In this document: positions 6,730 through 15,649 of the stretch, piece by piece
Layout: the number at the start of each line of letters is the position of its first letter
How positions within the stretch are numbered: the stretch's first letter is position 1
Assembly: GCA_030593645.1 (NCBI GenBank)
Contig: JAUVGT010000027.1
Location: 1 to 19,967 of the forward strand
Reading direction: 5' to 3'
DNA from: Deltaproteobacteria bacterium
GTDB lineage: Bacteria > Desulfobacterota > Desulfobacteria > Desulfobacterales > JAUVGT01
DNA length: 19,967 nt
The notes under the pieces: generated by a model
Told to the model about the DNA's origin: nothing
Seen by the model: only the letters and a program-made list of their open reading frames with translations
Database searches by the model: none
Made by a program: the position numbers and the translations under genes

Positions 6730-6835
6730 TTTTATTCCTTCCCAAAGTTGATGGTATCGCATAAGCTATAGACACATTTTAATAATAGAGCAAGTATTTT
6801 CATATGAATGAATTGCTGGGTATACAGGCTATTAC

Positions 6836-6866
6836 TGGATTGTTTCCAATAAAAATGGTATATAAT
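6836..6866 (+). promoter_or_regulatory. Candidate extended -10 promoter (TGgTATATAAT) upstream of the CCA-like nucleotidyltransferase gene.
   Basis: tggtatataat at 6856-6866. No good -35. Lies ~55 nt upstream of the ATG at 6920. Confidence 0.3.
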
Positions 6867-6919
6867 CTTGTTAGAAGTTATGATCTATTGAAATAAAATA
6901 AAGGCGTGTCATTAGAAAA

Positions 6920-8260
6920 ATGAGCGAAGAAAAAAAAGCGAACACTATCATTGACTGTCTCTGTCAAGAAGGATGGGAGGCTTATATCGCGGGCGGAGCC
7001 GCCCGTGATATTATTAACGGTGAAATACCGAATGATTATGATATTGTAACCAATGCTCCTTATGAAGTCATTACCGAATTATTCGCGAAAAGGAAGATGT
7101 CCCTTGTGGGCGCGAGCTTTAAGGTGTGCATTATAGATGGTATTGAAGTCGCGACTTACAGGAAAGATAACTATTTATTAACACCAGGGAGTGTCCCCGG
7201 TGTAGTGGAGGCGAAAACCATACAGGAAGATTTGGCAAGGCGGGATTTAACCATAAACTCAATGGCATTTTGCCCATACAATGGCGACATCGTTGATGAG
7301 TATGGCGGCGTTGAAGATCTGAAAAACCGGATAATCAGATTGACCGGGAATCCTGGTGAAAGAATAATGGAAGATCCGTGCCGTATATTAAGGGCCTGCA
7401 GATTTCTTGCAAAGCTCGAAGGAAGTTTTGATCCCGCGACCTTTGAGGCGCTTAGAAAAAACAGCTTTCTTGTAATGGAAAGGGTTGCACCTGAACGGAT
7501 CAGACTCGAAATTCTAAAAACCATGCAGTATCATAAGCCCAGTATATTTTTTGACGCGCTCCATGAAATCGGCGCGTTAAAATATTTATCCCCGGGTTTT
7601 GAGTTGTGCTATCACCATGATGGCGGTGTGTATCATGGGGAAACTATAGACGAACACATTAAGATGGTTGGGGATTCTCTTTCAAAGCGAAAACCATTAC
7701 TGAGGCTTGCCGGTTTTTGGCATGATCATGGTAAACCGGCTGCTGCGGAATATCGAAATGGGAATGTTTCATTTATACGGCATGCTGTTCTGGGGACAGA
7801 AATCGTGGATCAGGAACTGATAAAATTAAAATTCAGCGTACGGGAAACAGAATTTGTAAAATCAATTGTCAGACACCATATGCGAAATATACATCCCGAT
7901 GACAAACCCAAAACAGTCCGCAAAATGTTAAAAAAGCTAAATGATGACGGTGTTAACTGGAAAGATTGGCTGCAAATCAAGATTGCGGATACAAAAGGGA
8001 ACCTGCAAAAGAAAAACTTAAACCGGAATGAAGTAAAGAAAATTGTATTTAAGATACGTAATGAACTTAAACCGGATTCCAAACAGGCGGTATTGAGTAT
8101 TAAAGATCTGGCTGTGAACGGTGAAGATGTCATGCGTACTCTACACATTAAAGCCGGTCCAAAGGTAGGAAAAGTGTTAAACAAGCTCCTGGACCATGTT
8201 CTGGATACTCCGGAACTCAATACGCGTGAAAAATTAATGAAGTTAATTCCGGAAGGCTGA
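6920..8260 (+). CDS. tRNA nucleotidyltransferase / poly(A) polymerase family (CCA-adding-enzyme-like) with a C-terminal HD phosphohydrolase domain.
   Basis: Pol-beta NTase head GGAARDIINGEIPNDYDIVT, tRNA-NT family RRD motif (DLARRDLTINSMA), and HD-domain metal ligands (FWHDHGKP ... HHMRNIHPDD). Confidence 0.8.
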   Translation: MSEEKKANTIIDCLCQEGWEAYIAGGAARDIINGEIPNDYDIVTNAPYEVITELFAKRKMSLVGASFKVCIIDGIEVATYRKDNYLLTPGSVPGVVEAKTIQEDLARRDLTINSMAFCPYNGDIVDEYGGVEDLKNRIIRLTGNPGERIMEDPCRILRACRFLAKLEGSFDPATFEALRKNSFLVMERVAPERIRLEILKTMQYHKPSIFFDALHEIGALKYLSPGFELCYHHDGGVYHGETIDEHIKMVGDSLSKRKPLLRLAGFWHDHGKPAAAEYRNGNVSFIRHAVLGTEIVDQELIKLKFSVRETEFVKSIVRHHMRNIHPDDKPKTVRKMLKKLNDDGVNWKDWLQIKIADTKGNLQKKNLNRNEVKKIVFKIRNELKPDSKQAVLSIKDLAVNGEDVMRTLHIKAGPKVGKVLNKLLDHVLDTPELNTREKLMKLIPEG

Positions 8261-8377
8261 TCATCACTAATCGGGAGACCATCATCATTAAATAACAATA
8301 TAGCTCAGGATGGGTTATGGTTGATCAGAAATGTATACTCTGGATGTTCAGTCAATCGTGAAAACAGGAAAAAGATA

Positions 8378-9298
8378 ATGAGCAGCATATTTCAGAAATT
8401 GGAAAATAAAAAACTTCTGGAACACCATCCCTCGTTTATCAGCACCGGTGTTCATTATGAGGTCGTAATGGGCTCAGTGGCTTACGGTGTTTCAAGTGAT
8501 GCTTCAGATATGGACGTATATGGGTTTTGTATTCCCCCGAAGGATTTTGTTTTTCCTCATTTGCGAGGAGAGATTCCCGGATTCAGCAAGCCGGGTTCAT
8601 CATTTGAGCAATTTCAGCAGCATCATATTTATGATCAAACGGCATGCGGCGGTAGAGGCAGGGAATATGATATAACCATATATTCGATTATTAAGTACTT
8701 TCGATTATGCATGGAGAATAATCCGAATATGATCGACAGTCTTTTTGTTCCAAGACGCTGCATATTGTACTCTACTCAAACCGGAGAATTGGTTAGAGAA
8801 AACAGGCACCTTTTTCTTCACAAAGGCGCGTGGCATAAATTTAAAGGATATGCCTTTTCTCAGGTACATAAGATGAATACAAAGCAGCCGATTGGAAAGA
8901 GAAAAAAAATTATTGAACAGTTCGGATATGATGTAAAGTTCGCATACCATGTGGTTCGGCTGTTAAACGAAGTTGAGCAGATTTTAACGGAGCACGATCT
9001 TGACCTGGAGAAAAACCGGGAGCAGCTTAAAGCGATACGGCGGGGAGAGTGGAGCAGTGAAAAAATAAAAGAATATTTCGCGTCCAAGGAAAGAGAGCTT
9101 GAATCCCTGTATACTTCAAGCAAACTTTCTCCAATACCCAAAGAATCGGAAATTCAAAACCTTTTACTTAACTGTCTTGAGCACCACTATGGAAGCCTTG
9201 AAGCCTGTATTATTCGGGAAGATGCGGCGATTAAAGCGTTAAAGGATATTGACAAAATTCTGGATCGTTTGGATATCAAAACTAAAATTAAAAGCTGA
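8378..9298 (+). CDS. Pol-beta superfamily nucleotidyltransferase, predicted-NTase (PF10127/RlaP-like) family, copy 1. The ORF track begins at TTG 8321; the ATG at 8378 has an RBS.
   Basis: GS-x9-DxD signature MGSVAYGVSSDASDMDVYGF. ~300 aa with an alpha-helical C-terminal half. It is a paralog of the next gene. RBS aggaaa precedes ATG 8378. Confidence 0.6.
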   Translation: MSSIFQKLENKKLLEHHPSFISTGVHYEVVMGSVAYGVSSDASDMDVYGFCIPPKDFVFPHLRGEIPGFSKPGSSFEQFQQHHIYDQTACGGRGREYDITIYSIIKYFRLCMENNPNMIDSLFVPRRCILYSTQTGELVRENRHLFLHKGAWHKFKGYAFSQVHKMNTKQPIGKRKKIIEQFGYDVKFAYHVVRLLNEVEQILTEHDLDLEKNREQLKAIRRGEWSSEKIKEYFASKERELESLYTSSKLSPIPKESEIQNLLLNCLEHHYGSLEACIIREDAAIKALKDIDKILDRLDIKTKIKS

Positions 9299-9380
9299 TT
9301 TAAGATGAACAGAGCCAATACCGACTCCGAATTTCGATTGAGCGCGTTATTATTTCCCCTTGAGGGGACAGGGTGATACT

Positions 9381-10145
9381 ATGAACGTAAAAGAGAAAAT
9401 ACTAACCGGTTTGCGCCGGATAGAAAAGAAGTATAACGTCAAAATTATCTATGCCTGTGAATCGGGCAGCCGGGCCTGGGGATTTCCTTCAGAAGACAGT
9501 GATTACGATGTCCGCTTTATCTATGTCCATCCAAAGGACTGGTATTTAAGTATCGTAGAAAAGCGTGATGTAATCGAGATCCCGGTTGATAACGAACTTG
9601 ATATAAACGGGTGGGATATCCGGAAGTCGCTTTCACTTTTGAGAAAATCCAATGCCCCGATTCTTGAGTGGCTATCCTCACCAATCGTATATATGAAGGA
9701 CGTTAAAATTCTGGCCCCATTGCGAACATTATCTGGAAAAGCATTTTTGCCTGAATCCGTATGCCATCATTACCTGTCCATGGCTAAGAAGATGCTTGAA
9801 AAGATCGAGAATTCTTCAAAGGTCAGAATCAAAACCTACTTGTACGCCATACGGCCTGTGCTTTGCTGCATGTGGATTATCGAGAAGGGAACCCAGCCCC
9901 CTATGCTGTTCGGTACCTTAAAAAAATTATATTTGCCAAAAGGGAAAAGCAGGGAAGAAGTTGACAAACTGCTCATCCAGAAGGCGAAAAGTCTGGAATC
10001 AGATTTAATCGACCATTCCATTGTACTTGATGAGTTCCTTTCAGTAGAAACACAAAAAATAACTGACAATATTCCCAAAAATCCCTTAAAATGTGATGTC
10101 AACAATTTTGACAGTGTGTTTAAAGAGATCCTGGAAAGTGCCTGA
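9381..10145 (+). CDS. Pol-beta superfamily nucleotidyltransferase, predicted-NTase (PF10127/RlaP-like) family, copy 2. The ORF track begins at TTG 9360.
   Basis: ESGSRAWGFPSEDSDYDVRFIYV (hG[GS]...[DE]xD) NTase signature. Conserved ...AIRPVLCCMWI...PP..F block. Confidence 0.65.
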   Translation: MNVKEKILTGLRRIEKKYNVKIIYACESGSRAWGFPSEDSDYDVRFIYVHPKDWYLSIVEKRDVIEIPVDNELDINGWDIRKSLSLLRKSNAPILEWLSSPIVYMKDVKILAPLRTLSGKAFLPESVCHHYLSMAKKMLEKIENSSKVRIKTYLYAIRPVLCCMWIIEKGTQPPMLFGTLKKLYLPKGKSREEVDKLLIQKAKSLESDLIDHSIVLDEFLSVETQKITDNIPKNPLKCDVNNFDSVFKEILESA

Positions 10146-10367: not shown

Positions 10368-11117
10368 ATGGGGAAAAAAATAATCGATGTAAATGAAGCA
10401 GATATCGAAGAAACCGGATTTTTTTGCTATATGAGTAAGAAAAAAACCATAGGGTATAAAAACAAACTGGAATGGCTGAAATCAAGATTTTCAGAAGGGA
10501 TGAAACTAAAAATTCTTGGGGAAGGGAAAAGGGGCGTGATTGAATATATACCCGGAGAACATGCATGGAGGCCAGTCAAAGCAGAGGGCTATATGTTTAT
10601 TCACTGTCTCTGGGTAGTTGGTAAAAGCAAGGGAAACGGGTACGCAAAAGAATTATTGAATGAATGTATAAAAGATGCCAGGAAACTGAAAATGAAAGGC
10701 GTGGCCATGGTCACAAGTGAAAAGGTTTGGCTTATGAGTAAGAAGTTTCTGGTATTGCAGGGGTTTGAATCGGTCGATAAAGCGCCACCCTCTTTTGAAT
10801 TGATGGTAAATAAATTTGATAATTCAAACTTGCCTTCTTTTACCGGAAACTGGGAGAAAAAAGCAGAAAGATTTGGTTCCGGTCTCACTGTTATCCAAAC
10901 AGATCAATGCCCGTACATCGATGACGCGGTAAAACTTGTTTTGGAAGTTGGAAAAGAAATCGATTCCGAATGCAGCATCTGTAAGCTTGAAAGCAGTCAG
11001 GATGTCCGTGATTTAACCCCTTCAGCTTATGGTACATTTAGTATTGTATATAATGGTAGATTGTTGAGTTATCATTATTTAACACGAAAGGATTTATTGA
11101 AGCAAATAGGTAAATAG
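10368..11117 (+). CDS. GNAT-fold acetyltransferase-like protein with a C-terminal extension (YoaP-like).
   Basis: N-terminal region FFCYMSKKKTIGYKNKLEWLK...GYMFIHCLWVVGKSKGNGYAKELLNECIKDA resembles GNAT/YoaP acetyl-CoA-binding cores. RBS gggag precedes the ATG. Confidence 0.5.
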   Translation: MGKKIIDVNEADIEETGFFCYMSKKKTIGYKNKLEWLKSRFSEGMKLKILGEGKRGVIEYIPGEHAWRPVKAEGYMFIHCLWVVGKSKGNGYAKELLNECIKDARKLKMKGVAMVTSEKVWLMSKKFLVLQGFESVDKAPPSFELMVNKFDNSNLPSFTGNWEKKAERFGSGLTVIQTDQCPYIDDAVKLVLEVGKEIDSECSICKLESSQDVRDLTPSAYGTFSIVYNGRLLSYHYLTRKDLLKQIGK

Positions 11118-11757: not shown

Positions 11758-12183
11758 CTACTCATCATGGGGGGACACGGATTTTCTGAGTTTTTTTGTT
11801 TTACTTCTACGCTTTTTGGATTCTAAAATCCTCTTTTTTGATGCATAAGATTGTTTCGTTTTTTTTCTTTTTTTCGGTTTTTCTGCTGCCTGTTTTATTA
11901 ATTCGACAAGCCGATCAACAGCATCCTGCCGATTATGGGTCTGGGTTCGAAAACGCCGGGCATTAATGATCAGGATACCGTTATCGGTAATCCGGTGCCC
12001 CGAAAGCGTTTTTAAACGGGCACGAACATCATCCGGAAGTGATGGTGAATTTTTTACATCAAAACGGAGCTGAACCGCGGAGGAGACCTTGTTAACGTTC
12101 TGGCCGCCCGGTCCGGAAGCACGGATAAAATCGAATTTTAGTTCATTCTCATCAATTGAAATTTCTGCTGAAATGTTAATCAT
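11758..12183 (-). CDS. arfB: ArfB (YaeJ)-type alternative ribosome-rescue factor / peptidyl-tRNA hydrolase.
   Basis: GGQ catalytic motif in SGPGGQNVNKVSSAVQLRF, followed by a lysine/arginine-rich C-terminal tail (KPKKRKKTKQ...KKRRSKTKKLRK) that is diagnostic of ArfB. 141 aa. Confidence 0.85.
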   Translation of the reverse strand: MINISAEISIDENELKFDFIRASGPGGQNVNKVSSAVQLRFDVKNSPSLPDDVRARLKTLSGHRITDNGILIINARRFRTQTHNRQDAVDRLVELIKQAAEKPKKRKKTKQSYASKKRILESKKRRSKTKKLRKSVSPHDE

Positions 12184-12235: not shown

Positions 12236-12721
12236 TTAATCGAGAAACACAACATTACTTCCTCGTATTTCACCATTGACTGCTACCCTGTACCAATGCC
12301 TTAAAATCAGGGTTTTATGATCAGGGTGACGGATCCATCCACGAACGTACAATGCGGGATCCCGGGTCATACGATTCCAACTCCAGGACTTTGCCTTGGG
12401 ATGTTTTCTGATATAACGACGTTTTTCGTTTTCAGTCAATCCCGCTGCAAGCCTGGTTCTTTCATTGATATCTTTGACCCTGGAGGCAAAAACCTGAACC
12501 GTGTAGACTGTAGTGCCGCCAACAATATATGCTTCCTGTGCCCGGTGAGGCTTATTGCCTGCTCTTACATTTGAAAGCATTATCGGTTCACCGCCTTTTG
12601 GGCGCAGGATCATCGCTTCCTTAACACTGAACCCTTCGACAGGAACAAAAAACCATTCCCCCTGCCGTTTGAATCCTTTGTTTTTACGGCGATGAAGCTG
12701 TCGTTTTTTAACATGATGCAT
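12236..12721 (-). CDS. Hypothetical basic protein (161 aa), co-oriented between rtcB and arfB.
   Basis: Intact ORF with a very basic N-terminus (MHHVKKRQLHRRKNKGFKRQ). No motif I can name. Confidence 0.5.
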   Translation of the reverse strand: MHHVKKRQLHRRKNKGFKRQGEWFFVPVEGFSVKEAMILRPKGGEPIMLSNVRAGNKPHRAQEAYIVGGTTVYTVQVFASRVKDINERTRLAAGLTENEKRRYIRKHPKAKSWSWNRMTRDPALYVRGWIRHPDHKTLILRHWYRVAVNGEIRGSNVVFLD

Positions 12722-12748
12722 TTTCTGAGACCATACCGCCAGTTCGGG

Positions 12749-13135
12749 TTATAATGCCTGCTTGGCAGCAAGTACGTTGCTGACTGTTCGGCGCGGTACC
12801 TGGGCCGCAAAAAATTCTCTTTCATCATGGCCGCAAAGCGTTTTAATGACTTCAGGATCCGGAGAAGTTCTGGCATTAAAGACTTTTGCCATTAGTAAAA
12901 GGTGGCGGTCTTTGGCCTGAACATCAGGCACAATAATATCTACTGTACCGCGAGTCCGGATGTCAAATATTTCTCCTTTTTTATCATTGATTACATCAAC
13001 GACATTATTACTGTTTTTATTATTTGCAGACCGGTCTGCAAGCCCGGAAAACATAACCCGTGCACCGATCATTTCAAATTTGTTTTTAATTATTTCTTTA
13101 TCCAATTGTTCACCTCTTTCTATAAGCGGCTCCAA
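12749..13135 (-). CDS. Hypothetical protein (128 aa, TTG start in the ORF track), co-oriented downstream of rtcB.
   Basis: Open frame in operon context with a 27-nt gap to the next gene. No recognisable motif. The start codon is uncertain. Confidence 0.4.
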   Translation of the reverse strand: MEPLIERGEQLDKEIIKNKFEMIGARVMFSGLADRSANNKNSNNVVDVINDKKGEIFDIRTRGTVDIIVPDVQAKDRHLLLMAKVFNARTSPDPEVIKTLCGHDEREFFAAQVPRRTVSNVLAAKQAL

Positions 13136-13309: not shown

Positions 13310-14515
13310 TTATCCCTTCACAACGCCAAGCGGTCTAAGCTTCACAATTGGCTTGATCAGATCAAGTTCTGATTTAATAACCGCATCAATATCTTTATAT
13401 GCCTGGGGGGCTTCACCCAGATCGTATAATCCTTTGGTTTTACCTCTTTTTACTTTTTTCCATCTGTCGTATACGATTCCATCCATGGCCCGGTCACATT
13501 CTTCAGGTGTCAGGTTCTGGGTGGCCTGGTTTCTTCCCATTACTCGTCCGGCACCATGGGAACAGGACATAAAGGATTCCGCGGTACCCAGTCCTTCAAC
13601 AATATATGAAAATGAGCCCATGGAACCGGGGATAATTCCGGTCTCGTTCACTTTTGCTGACGTTGCGCCTTTTCTGTGCACCCAGACATTCTCACCAAAA
13701 TGGTTTTCGAGGGCCGCGTAATTATGGTGAATATTAATGGGCGCATTGAAAGTCACATTGCTGAAAATAGAGGAGAATGCTTCCATAAAGCGGTTCATGA
13801 TTCTCCGCCTGTTTTCTTTTGCATAGGATAGCGCGAAATTCATGTCTCGAATATAGCCCTGTCCTTCCCTGCTGTTAACCGGAAGAAATGCCAGATCTTT
13901 ATTCGGAATAACGGAGTAATATTTGCGGTTCAATTCAATGGCAACTGAATGATGATGTCTTGCGATGACATTTCCAAGATGCCTTGACCCTGAATGAATC
14001 ATCAGCCATACAAATTCATCATCCCCATCCTGGATCTCAATAAAATGGTTTCCACCTCCAAGAGTTCCAAGGTTTCGGCTCGCCAGATCGCCCACATGGT
14101 CTGTAAACCACCCCGTTTCATGGAATTCTTCAATATCTTCATCAATGCCTTCCCATGTTTGCGGTTTTTTATGAGCGTGTCCTTCTCCGCACGGAACAAA
14201 CGTTTTCACGAGGGTTACGATTTCACGCAGCTGTTCTTTTGTGACTCCGGAAGCCAGAATATCCGTCTTAACCGCTCCCATACCGCATCCAATATCAACT
14301 CCCACGGCATTCGGGATAACCGCGTTTTTGCATCCAATCACTCCTCCGATAGGCATTCCATAACCCTGATGGCAGTCGGGCATTAGAGCCACGTGGCGAA
14401 ATACAACCGGATGCATGGCAAGATCAGAGGCCTGAGCCCATGCCCTTTCTTCGATATCTTTGCACCATGATTTGATCGGCACTTTAAATTTATCTTCATT
14501 TTTTACCCATTCCAT
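13310..14515 (-). CDS. rtcB: RNA-splicing ligase RtcB (3'-phosphate/5'-OH RNA ligase). The preferred start is the MEWVKNED Met, which has a ggaggag RBS; the longest ORF would start at 14560.
   Basis: Hallmarks MPDCHQGYGMPIGG, GVDIGCGM, GGGNHFIEIQ, HSGSRHLGN, HHNY and CSHGAGR are all present. Confidence 0.92.
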   Translation of the reverse strand: MEWVKNEDKFKVPIKSWCKDIEERAWAQASDLAMHPVVFRHVALMPDCHQGYGMPIGGVIGCKNAVIPNAVGVDIGCGMGAVKTDILASGVTKEQLREIVTLVKTFVPCGEGHAHKKPQTWEGIDEDIEEFHETGWFTDHVGDLASRNLGTLGGGNHFIEIQDGDDEFVWLMIHSGSRHLGNVIARHHHSVAIELNRKYYSVIPNKDLAFLPVNSREGQGYIRDMNFALSYAKENRRRIMNRFMEAFSSIFSNVTFNAPINIHHNYAALENHFGENVWVHRKGATSAKVNETGIIPGSMGSFSYIVEGLGTAESFMSCSHGAGRVMGRNQATQNLTPEECDRAMDGIVYDRWKKVKRGKTKGLYDLGEAPQAYKDIDAVIKSELDLIKPIVKLRPLGVVKG

Positions 14516-14588
14516 GGTATTTCTCCTCCACGAGTATTTTCTGTAAAACAGATAAGGCATACCTGCTCTATGCCCGCCATGAAGGTTT

Positions 14589-15626
14589 TTACTTCATAGT
14601 GTATGGTTGACCATTGATTTTAATTTCACAGGCGTTTTCATCATACTGGTCAATGGAAACATCAATATCAAGGAACTGCTTGAGTACTTCAATATTGGTT
14701 AACGTATGCCTCGACGGGGTAAGGGTTCTGAATTTACCTCCCCCGGCCAAAGCCATTGGAATTAAAAGCTGATCAGCCAGGTAGCCGGCAACCGGCACTT
14801 TCGAGTTTAGATATTTCTGAACAAGCGTTACTGTTTTGTTTGCAACTTTTTCAGCAGTAACACCTCTTTCCCCGAATCCTGTAAACATTTCAGTGATGTT
14901 TTCGCTTTCAATTTCAACGGTCAGGATGTTCCCGGGTCCCATGGAACCCGTTACATCTTCTGCAATAAGGTCCTCCCGGGCCATATTCAGCTTGTCTTTC
15001 AATATTTTTAGTTCTCTGTTGGCGATGCTAATCGGCAGTTTTGCCGTTTTAGCAATGGCCCTTTGATTGATAACCCTGCCTCTTGCCGATAGATCTATTT
15101 TATTTAAGCTCCGGGTCGGTTTGACATTGACTGTGAACCGTCCTCCGCCCGCGGGATAGAAACCGGGCCGTTCAAGGACGGACGTGACTTCCGGACCCAT
15201 CTTATTGATCAGCGGCAAAAAAGCCTTCACTAGAAAATCAAAGGGCGGGGCATATGGGTTATGTGTGCCACCCTCCAGAACAACTCTTGAAGAATTTTTC
15301 GCAAGTAGCAGGGACGGGAGTATCGTTTGAAGTACAAGCGTACAGCTCCCGGCAGTACCGACCGAGAAAAGATAATCTCCCGCGTCAACAGTAACAGGTG
15401 AAAAAAATAGTTCTCCTGATCCGATGCTGTTGCCTTTAATTTCAGCTTTTCCGATTTCAGAGGCTGCGTTCGCCGCGGTCAGATGCTGTCTCATCAGACC
15501 CGGTTTTCTTCGGCCGGCCCGGATATTTTTAATCAAAAAAGGTTTCCCGGTCACAAGTGACATAGCCAGTGATGTCCGCAGGACCTGTCCGCCTCCTTCT
15601 CCAAATGAACCGTCAATATGTATCAT
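14589..15626 (-). CDS. rtcA: RNA 3'-terminal phosphate cyclase RtcA.
   Basis: The N-terminus IHIDGSFGEGGGQVLRTSLAMSLVTGKPFLIKNIRAGRRKPGLMRQHL is near-identical in pattern to E. coli RtcA. Also GSCTLVLQTILP and YLADQLLIPMALAGGG. RBS gagga. Confidence 0.92.
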   Translation of the reverse strand: MIHIDGSFGEGGGQVLRTSLAMSLVTGKPFLIKNIRAGRRKPGLMRQHLTAANAASEIGKAEIKGNSIGSGELFFSPVTVDAGDYLFSVGTAGSCTLVLQTILPSLLLAKNSSRVVLEGGTHNPYAPPFDFLVKAFLPLINKMGPEVTSVLERPGFYPAGGGRFTVNVKPTRSLNKIDLSARGRVINQRAIAKTAKLPISIANRELKILKDKLNMAREDLIAEDVTGSMGPGNILTVEIESENITEMFTGFGERGVTAEKVANKTVTLVQKYLNSKVPVAGYLADQLLIPMALAGGGKFRTLTPSRHTLTNIEVLKQFLDIDVSIDQYDENACEIKINGQPYTMK

Positions 15627-15649
15627 TTTTTATCCTCATTATTGGTTTA

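Follow-up and report, generated by a model that had tools for sequence, protein, structure and literature searches.

The 19,967-bp stretch analysed in this work (hereafter, the window) is an entire metagenome-assembled contig (JAUVGT010000027.1, from a Deltaproteobacteria bacterium). On its plus strand, between positions 6920 and 10145, it harbors three consecutive nucleotidyltransferase (NTase) genes: a cca gene, coding for a CCA-adding-type tRNA nucleotidyltransferase endowed with an HD domain, and two genes coding for proteins of the RlaP family (PF10127), hereafter RlaP-A and RlaP-B. We consider it probable that these three enzymes form a module for the restoration of RNA 3' ends, which accompanies an RtcB ligase system. 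The CCA/RlaP-A and RlaP-A/RlaP-B pairs, as well as the whole trio, recur in unrelated contigs, which argues that the cluster is more than a chance arrangement. In a scan of genome contigs, the closest relatives of the window were two loci from metagenome-assembled genomes (MAGs) of Desulfobacteraceae.

The three nucleotidyltransferases

After a spacer of 157 nt (6763-6919), four open reading frames (ORFs) follow each other in one direction on the plus strand (6920-8260, 8321-9298, 9360-10145, and 10368-11117). An earlier reading made from the letters alone (the sequence-only reading) had described the first three as a cluster of NTase genes, and the ORF list, Pfam, and the motifs agree with it; the Pfam check that it had proposed assigned PF01743 and PF01966 to gene 1 and PF10127 to genes 2 and 3. 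The three genes are the following:

6920..8260, plus strand: class-II tRNA nucleotidyltransferase, with a CCA-adding-type head, an RNA-binding region, an HD phosphohydrolase domain, and a C-terminal tRNA_NucTran2_2 domain (Pfam, motifs)
8378..9298, plus strand: RlaP-A, a PF10127 nucleotidyltransferase of about 306 residues (Pfam, 70.8 bits; the ORF opens with TTG 8321, the probable start is ATG 8378)
9381..10145, plus strand: RlaP-B, a canonical PF10127 (RlaP) nucleotidyltransferase of 254 residues (Pfam, 283 bits over the full model; the ORF opens with TTG 9360)

The product of gene 1 is 446 residues long (P0001 is an identical 446-residue protein that has the window as its sole contig; a look-up of the exact protein retrieved no entry) and matches four Pfam families above their gathering cut-offs: PF01743 (86 bits, cut-off 23), PF12627 (42 bits), PF13735 (35 bits), and, for the HD domain, PF01966 (30.7 bits, cut-off 22). 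The head carries the motifs GGAARD (6992-7009, residues 25-30) and DYD (7034-7042, residues 39-41), together with RRD (motif B; 7238-7246, residues 107-109) and EDPCR (motif D, EDxxR; 7370-7384, residues 151-155). The HD motif, HD(HGK), lies at 7721-7735, with the HD dyad at 7721-7726 (residues 268-269) flanked by His and Asp residues. The tRNA-NT head, the RRD motif, and the HD domain attributed to this gene by the sequence-only reading were thus all recovered.

E. coli Cca shares with gene 1 the GGxxRD, DxD, RRD, and EDxxR head motifs and an intact HD motif, whereas the window protein is only 26-28% identical to it and possesses an extra C-terminal PF13735 domain. The spacing from the beta strand to RRD resembles, by eye, that of the E. 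coli-type enzyme, which is at most a hint on CCA specificity. Gene 1 scores below every NCBIfam cut-off for CCA and PcnB, the best match being the CCA equivalog NF009814 (178 bits vs. 290). However, its orthologues in housekeeping contexts lie below the CCA cut-offs as well; therefore, the NCBIfam CCA models probably miss this lineage. According to the passages of PMC6961547 dealing with the E. coli enzyme, the latter is named CCA addition/repair protein and its HD domain strips 2',3'-cyclic phosphate (citing Yakunin 2004). The sequence of gene 1 predicts an enzyme combining CCA rebuilding with end healing by a 2',3'-cyclic phosphodiesterase/phosphatase.

As for genes 2 and 3, both scores exceed the PF10127 gathering cut-off (23 bits), and the homologues of the two proteins also carry a precomputed PF10127 assignment. 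Since these homologues are 300-303 and 254 residues long, respectively, ATG 8378 and ATG 9381, rather than the upstream TTG codons, are likely the true starts; P0241 is an identical 254-residue call of RlaP-B. The catalytic site of RlaP-A comprises GS-x10-DMD (8471-8515; D44 and D46) and a third carboxylate, D98 (8669-8671), and that of RlaP-B comprises GS-x10-DYD (9465-9509; D41 and D43) and D74 (9600-9602). The signature proposed earlier (GS-x9-DxD) is therefore common to both genes, but the motif scan gave a spacing of ten residues instead of nine. The three carboxylates are invariant in the alignments of 40 RlaP-A and 36 RlaP-B homologues. The AlphaFold models (pLDDT of 89 for RlaP-A and 94 for RlaP-B) contain in both cases an NTase core and the helical C-terminal domain that had been anticipated. 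Judging from these sequences, both RlaPs appear catalytically competent. Searches of PDB sequences with the two proteins retrieved no match, and fold searches retrieved generic Pol-beta NTases alone (ANT(4'), LinB, Tam41, and HalB).

The two RlaPs are not close relatives of each other. The comparison of RlaP-A (a subfamily of about 303 residues) with RlaP-B by hhalign gave a probability of 45% and about 23% identity over 116 profile columns, and BLASTP aligned them only around the active site. Between its DxD and its third carboxylate, RlaP-A contains an insert, conserved and about 35 residues long (PHLRGEIPGF...QQHH...GGxGREYD), that is absent from RlaP-B. In other phyla, orthologues specific to each of the two proteins occur at 50-80% identity: RlaP-A has 6308 homologues, with 64-78% identity across Desulfobacterales, Gammaproteobacteria, and Acidobacteria, and RlaP-B has thousands of its own. 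The conservation of RlaP-A is unusual and much higher than that of its neighbours: its multialignment (A1) shows a mean column identity of 70%, with 85 columns invariant across phyla, vs. 49% for RlaP-B. Their PHROG families also differ (phrog_388 for RlaP-A and phrog_14344 for RlaP-B), the phage relatives being NTases of a Rhizobium T4-like phage (52%) and of mycobacteriophages for the former, and the phiKZ "YcgL" NTase (47% identity) for the latter. According to these data, the idea that genes 2 and 3 are diverged tandem duplicates has to be abandoned, given their 23% identity, their separate PHROGs, and the far closer orthologues found elsewhere; on the evidence of their sequences, they are two anciently separated subfamilies. 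A putative RlaP-A/RlaP-B heterodimer would be compatible with the overlapping, translationally coupled gene pairs that occur in either order in other loci.

Recurrence of the cluster in other loci

The genes neighbouring RlaP-A were compared in 85 non-redundant RlaP-A loci, obtained from one metagenome scan (best 80 matches) and from hand-picked look-ups; one of them (L094) was sought deliberately, and the fractions over the 85 loci are descriptive, not unbiased. Neighbours were scored by hidden Markov models built from the window and related loci. RlaP-B is adjacent to RlaP-A on the same strand in 13/85 loci and a CCA-type enzyme in 11/85, both being found together with RlaP-A in two (the window and L094). 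Moreover, RtcB is present in 11 of the 85 loci, SPFH in five, an RF-1 family protein (PrfH or ArfB) in seven, and at least three tRNA genes in 15. If only loci of at least 8 kb are considered, 22 out of 39 harbor at least one among RlaP-B, CCA, RtcB, and a tRNA cluster. Beyond the clade with at least 65% identity, the BLAST clustering of RlaP-A neighbours revealed diverse, partly phage-like contexts and no further recurrent partner.

As for gene order, the key case is L094, a tight operon, RtcB2-PrfH-CCA-RlaP-A-RlaP-B, with the same order as the window but from a different organism (54% identity for CCA and 73% for RlaP-A). L004 has the order RtcB2-PrfH-x-CCA-RlaP-A; in both, CCA and RlaP lie inside RtcB2-PrfH operons with overlapping genes. 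A third arrangement (L010) is RtcB ... HNH-SPFH-CCA-RlaP-A-RtcB2-PrfH. RlaP-B may precede or follow RlaP-A, with frequent overlaps of 4-29 nt between the two genes (L008, L094, and L096). In a Desulfobacterales MAG (L095, 8612-12062), an HD/HD_5 protein (458 residues), RlaP-A, and a small ATP-dependent ligase (274 residues) are encoded consecutively; from its predicted products, this would be a heal/fill/seal trio in which a 5'-phosphate ligase replaces RtcB. The conservation of the NTases beside rtc loci, whose absence would have counted against the sequence-only reading, was thus found, in favour of that reading: besides the presence of RtcB in 11/85 loci, NTases and RtcB share one gene string in six (L094, L004, L010, L013, L015, and L017).

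The cca genes associated with RlaP-A are of more than one type. Those adjoining it in L004, L094, L063, and L087 are of the Desulfobacteraceae type, and those of L009 and L010 belong to the E. coli-type equivalog (610 and 624 bits, respectively, vs. a cut-off of 451), sharing 26-28% identity with gene 1 of the window. RlaP-A appears to pair with the cca type available in its lineage, whichever this may be, in favour of a functional link.

Same-strand tRNA arrays of 8-26 genes, with near-complete amino acid sets, lie within 10 kb of RlaP-A (L018, 4761-8076; L015, 1183-6380; L019, 14631-20027; L010, 2663-7172; L022, 380-2245), and further RlaP-A loci with tRNA arrays are L075, L063, L017, L082, and L089. 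Arrays of 10-26 tRNAs occur in eight of the 85 loci (L010, L015, L017, L018, L019, and L022 are among the carriers). The same-strand arrays of 8-26 genes are often located upstream of the string RtcB-SPFH-(CCA or RlaP-B)-RlaP-A. The enrichment of long arrays beside RlaP-A supports tRNA as a substrate. Since most of the array tRNAs already encode CCA, the CCA enzyme at these arrays would serve repair rather than maturation. The RlaP-A-linked arrays are similar to the long tRNA arrays of bacteria and the tRNA clusters of phages described in the literature.

The neighbouring rtc operon and its tRNA-like RNA

The remaining features of the window are the following:

10368..11117, plus strand: GNAT acetyltransferase with a YoaP-like C-terminus (Pfam), starting 223 nt after RlaP-B
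11758..12183, minus strand: ArfB, ribosome-rescue peptidyl-tRNA hydrolase, at the tail of the rtc operon (NCBIfam NF006718, 188 bits vs. 100)
13310..14560, minus strand: RtcB RNA ligase, joining 3'-phosphate or 2',3'-cyclic phosphate to 5'-OH ends (Pfam PF01139, 359 bits)
14589..15626, minus strand: RtcA, RNA 3'-phosphate cyclase (NCBIfam NF003246, 423 bits vs. 352)
15783..16898, minus strand: SPFH/Band-7 protein, first ORF of the rtc operon (Pfam PF01145, 122 bits)
17506..17570, minus strand: tRNA-like RNA (Rfam RF00005, 44.4 bits vs. a cut-off of 29)
17751..17766, minus strand: sigma-54 -24/-12 element TGGCACATGCGTTGCT, a perfect TGGCAC-N5-TTGC and the only zero-mismatch match in the window
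18022..19644, plus strand: RtcR, sigma-54 activator, divergent from the rtc operon (NCBIfam NF038308, 794 bits vs. 650)

On the minus strand, the rtc operon thus reads: sigma-54 element, tRNA-like RNA, SPFH, RtcA, RtcB, a split gene for an unknown protein, ArfB, and an ORF of 110 residues. The window contains all the components that mark an Rtc system, that is, RtcR, a perfect sigma-54 promoter, RtcA, and RtcB. The presence of ArfB in an RtcR-controlled operon parallels the PrfH-RtcB2 pairing of L094, L004, and L010.

The sequence-only reading had placed the NTase cluster adjacent to this operon. The operon is indeed nearby, but the two do not form a single unit: the GNAT gene lies between them, its end being 5 nt away from the final ORF of the convergent minus-strand operon, and rtcB and the tRNA-like RNA are 3.2 kb and 7.4 kb, respectively, from the RlaP-B stop codon. 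The neighbourhood to an RNA ligase that characterises RlaPs therefore exists in the window in the form of a convergent RtcB at 3.2 kb, and relatives of the locus have RtcB or an ATP-dependent ligase in one gene string with RlaP. No sigma-54-like element comparable to that of the rtc operon was found upstream of cca (6763-6919), and scans of the window for sigma-70 promoters and terminators gave no excess over shuffled expectation. From the convergent orientation and from the lack of a sigma-54-like site before cca, it follows that the NTase cluster lies beside the rtc operon without belonging to it. A counterpart of the GNAT gene was sought in the related loci and none was found; this acetyltransferase probably stands outside the NTase module.

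The tRNA-like RNA has a D arm, an anticodon arm (loop CCUGGAA), a T arm, and an acceptor stub of just 3 bp. Its discriminator A is not followed by an encoded CCA; hence, both the Rfam match and the reading of its 3' end are in agreement with the CCA-less tRNA-like RNA reported before. ARAGORN made no call at this locus, and minimum free energy folding of the region gave z = -1.1. The sigma-54 element is 180 nt upstream of the RNA, which in turn is located about 600 nt upstream of SPFH. The same arrangement, an SPFH gene of an RtcB operon preceded by a tRNA-like gene, was found in L010, L015, and L017, where full-length tRNA-like genes occupy the equivalent position. An SPFH protein with a tRNA-like partner in RtcB repair operons is reportedly described in the abstract of Burroughs and Aravind from 2016.

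Two further observations concern the operon itself. Most of the 156-nt spacer between SPFH and rtcA is occupied by a tandem direct repeat (15646-15781, 2 x 68 nt, 94% identical), each copy of which contains a hairpin of about 16 bp. This repeat might serve for processing or as a stabiliser, or else represent a REP-like element. Moreover, two ORFs without Pfam match located downstream of rtcB (12236-13135, minus strand; 128 and 161 residues) are the N-terminal and C-terminal halves, respectively, of one conserved unknown protein of about 280-300 residues, with 729 representatives at E<=1e-3; residues 1-131 of one of them (P0362) match the first ORF and residues 145-299 the second. In the window, a stop or a frameshift interrupts this gene, through either real decay or an assembly error. 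A 320-residue unknown protein of SPFH loci (cluster c9) was considered as a counterpart of this split gene, and the comparison showed that the two are unrelated.

Proposed function and alternative explanations

Burroughs and Aravind (2016) defined and named RlaP on account of its association with RNA ligases, according to the passages on this family in PMC12776372, PMC6514570, and PMC7824862. Two Pseudomonas representatives, PfRlaP and PaRlaP, have been characterised in a preprint by Carruthers, Fatma and Huang (2025; PMC12776372): in vitro, they add one to two nucleoside monophosphates to RNA 3'-OH ends, reject 3'-phosphate ends, and favour the break-site end of a nicked-tRNA mimic. The linkage of RlaP to RNA ligases and this 3'-OH extension sustain the general RNA-repair interpretation put forward by the sequence-only reading. 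We can depict the following scenario for the module. A ribotoxin or a nuclease would cut or trim tRNA, possibly rRNA, leaving a 2',3'-cyclic phosphate or 3'-phosphate end, sometimes with the loss of nucleotides. The HD domain of the CCA enzyme, as shown for E. coli Cca, may turn the damaged end into a 3'-OH, a task that could alternatively be accomplished by the stand-alone HD proteins found in L095, L063, and L031. RlaP-A and/or RlaP-B, by analogy with the activity shown for the Pseudomonas proteins, would then refill the lost nucleotides, and the CCA head would restore the CCA tail on acceptor ends that had been hit. RtcR-induced RtcA and RtcB would seal internal breaks, and ArfB (or PrfH) would free stalled ribosomes.

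Several points weigh against this scenario. The NTase cluster is convergent to the rtc operon, is transcribed separately, and has no sigma-54 promoter; within the trio, the genes are separated by 117 nt (cca/RlaP-A) and 82 nt (RlaP-A/RlaP-B). The trio is rare, occurring in 2/85 loci, one of which (L094) comes from a targeted look-up, and about 17 of the 39 loci of at least 8 kb have none of the partners. From the biochemical viewpoint, the 3'-OH product of RlaP is unfit for RtcB, which needs a 3'-phosphate, as the authors of the preprint themselves point out, and the addition to RNA 3' ends has been shown only for PfRlaP and PaRlaP (PMC12776372). Lastly, the adjacency of cca and RlaP may reflect a preferred docking site and not an obligate partnership, because close cca orthologues are found in ordinary neighbourhoods without RlaP.

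The latter point leads to the alternative that the neighbourhood is coincidental: a mobile RlaP-A/RlaP-B pair would happen to lie after a housekeeping cca, being functionally independent of this gene as well as of the rtc operon. Orthologues of the window cca sharing 55-67% identity lie, without RlaP, between argS and pyrD (L006), beside nifUS and carD (L093), and beside Tex (L001), and in a neighbour-joining CCA tree the window enzyme is nested among these housekeeping-context sequences. GC content and GC content at third codon positions (GC3) neither give the trio a foreign signature nor set it apart as a single unit. From this grouping and the lack of a compositional anomaly, the window gene is probably the resident, ordinary cca rather than a dedicated paralogue, with the RlaP pair probably docked downstream of it. 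This, together with the separate convergent transcription units, the missing sigma-54 promoter, and the existence of RlaP-A/RlaP-B pairs on their own beside BREX genes (L008) or among metabolic genes (L096), speaks for coincidence. On the other hand, the CCA/RlaP-A adjacency recurs in 11/85 loci, involves two unrelated cca types, and the RlaP- or RtcB-linked enzymes are scattered over several separate places of the tree; furthermore, CCA and RlaP are embedded with overlapping genes in the RtcB2-PrfH operons of L094 and L004. Thus, we regard a purely coincidental neighbourhood as rather unlikely. Even a housekeeping status would leave a repair role possible, because E. coli Cca, too, is a repair enzyme. 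The cca gene may also mark or border a variable or defence region, as the contexts of three further orthologues suggest: two of them, 62% identical to the window gene, are found in defence-island-like surroundings, with an RT-Cas1/Cas6 CRISPR adaptation module and with a CopG antitoxin and a large helicase cluster (L091, 858-7858; L092, 32-10361), and a third (L007) has RtcB directly upstream.

The two other alternatives concern the substrate. According to the idea advanced by the sequence-only reading, the NTases would tail or repair the SPFH-associated tRNA-like RNA instead of cellular tRNAs. This RNA is real and lacks an encoded CCA; in L010, L015, and L017, SPFH follows a tRNA(-like) gene in one string with RlaP-A and CCA or RlaP-B, and L019 brings together SPFH, a gene for tRNA-Met, and the RlaP pair, although at greater distances. 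Nevertheless, SPFH is found in only 5/85 RlaP-A loci, most RlaP/CCA pairs have no tRNA-like partner, and the tRNAs of the arrays near RlaP mostly encode CCA already. In the window, moreover, the RNA is 7.4 kb away, in a separate convergent operon driven by sigma-54. CCA enzymes recognise the acceptor/T minihelix, to which an acceptor stub of 3 bp fits poorly, and we judge this idea improbable. Finally, the RlaPs might be NTases acting on small molecules or in signalling, either antibiotic-modifying enzymes of the ANT/Lnu type or oligonucleotide synthases similar to HalB of the phage-defence system Hailong. Their nearest solved folds are, in fact, ANT(4')/KNTase, LinB, and Hailong HalB, and L008 adjoins BREX genes. 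These fold matches, however, are weak (TM 0.3-0.5, 10-14% identity), PADLOC gave no match for either RlaP, no effector partner gene is present, and the genomic partners are RNA enzymes and tRNAs. Both proteins exceed the PF10127 gathering score, and the characterised RlaPs, in the relevant part of PMC12776372, used RNA alone among the cellular macromolecules tried. Such a role is, in our opinion, highly improbable, and the restoration of RNA 3' ends remains the preferred reading.

The comparison with known systems leads to the conclusion that the window is a cellular instance of an already described syntax, whose components, linkage to RNA ligases, and heal/fill/seal logic have been published. 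The window pair resembles the Pseudomonas RlaPs in the PF10127 domain, the three carboxylates, the NTase core with a helical domain, and the proximity to RtcR-RtcA-RtcB. However, Pseudomonas has a single RlaP within the operon, between rtcB and rtcA, whereas in the window two RlaPs follow cca, in a unit that is separate from the operon and convergent to it. These two are of different subfamilies, RlaP-A belonging to that of about 303 residues with the conserved insert between DxD and the third carboxylate. Jumbo phages carry tRNA sets, RtcB/Rnl ligases, RlaP, and a CCA enzyme together as an RNA-repair toolkit (Iyer et al. 2021, PMC7824862). Long tRNA arrays neighboured by HNH and rtcB genes are known from bacteria (Santamaria-Gomez et al. 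2021, PMC8421152); the main text of the latter paper mentions neither nucleotidyltransferases nor a link to RlaP. The window shares with these phage and cellular spare-tRNA kits RtcB, RlaP, a CCA enzyme, and a tRNA or tRNA-like gene, but it is chromosomal, has one tRNA-like gene and no array, and is under RtcR/sigma-54 control. As regards RtcB2-PrfH (TIGR03073/TIGR03072), CCA-RlaP is joined to this pair in L094, L004, and L010, and the window likewise combines RtcB with a rescue factor, although these are an RtcA-linked RtcB and ArfB. RtcB2-PrfH was reportedly described by Tian and colleagues in 2022 as a pair for the rescue and repair of damaged ribosomes. Three aspects may be unreported: that two distinct RlaP subfamilies are consistently paired, that RlaP-A is coupled to HD-CCA enzymes from unrelated lineages, and how often tRNA arrays lie beside RlaP-A.

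A bolder version of the RNA-repair reading, which we put forward only tentatively and with some doubt, is that RlaP-A and RlaP-B cooperate obligately, possibly as a heteromer, and constitute with the HD-bearing CCA enzyme a ligase-independent pathway for tRNA 3' ends. This pathway would rebuild ends trimmed beyond CCA or fill gaps in the anticodon loop after dephosphorylation by the HD domain, and it would travel with spare-tRNA arrays and RtcB systems against tRNA-targeting toxins. If this were true, the HD partner would supply the 3'-OH of RlaP, easing part of the end-chemistry problem raised by the 2025 preprint.

The comparison adds evidence for at least two non-redundant RlaP subfamilies, whose genes recurrently neighbour each other. 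Of these, RlaP-A is found time and again with HD-CCA enzymes from unrelated lineages, with RtcB/PrfH systems, and with long tRNA arrays, and this recurrent coupling indicates tRNA as the substrate; the HD domain, in turn, is suggested as the source of the 3'-OH that RlaP requires. The trio of the window thereby offers a defined three-protein set for biochemical reconstitution, through which it may be learned how RlaP activity joins end healing and CCA repair.

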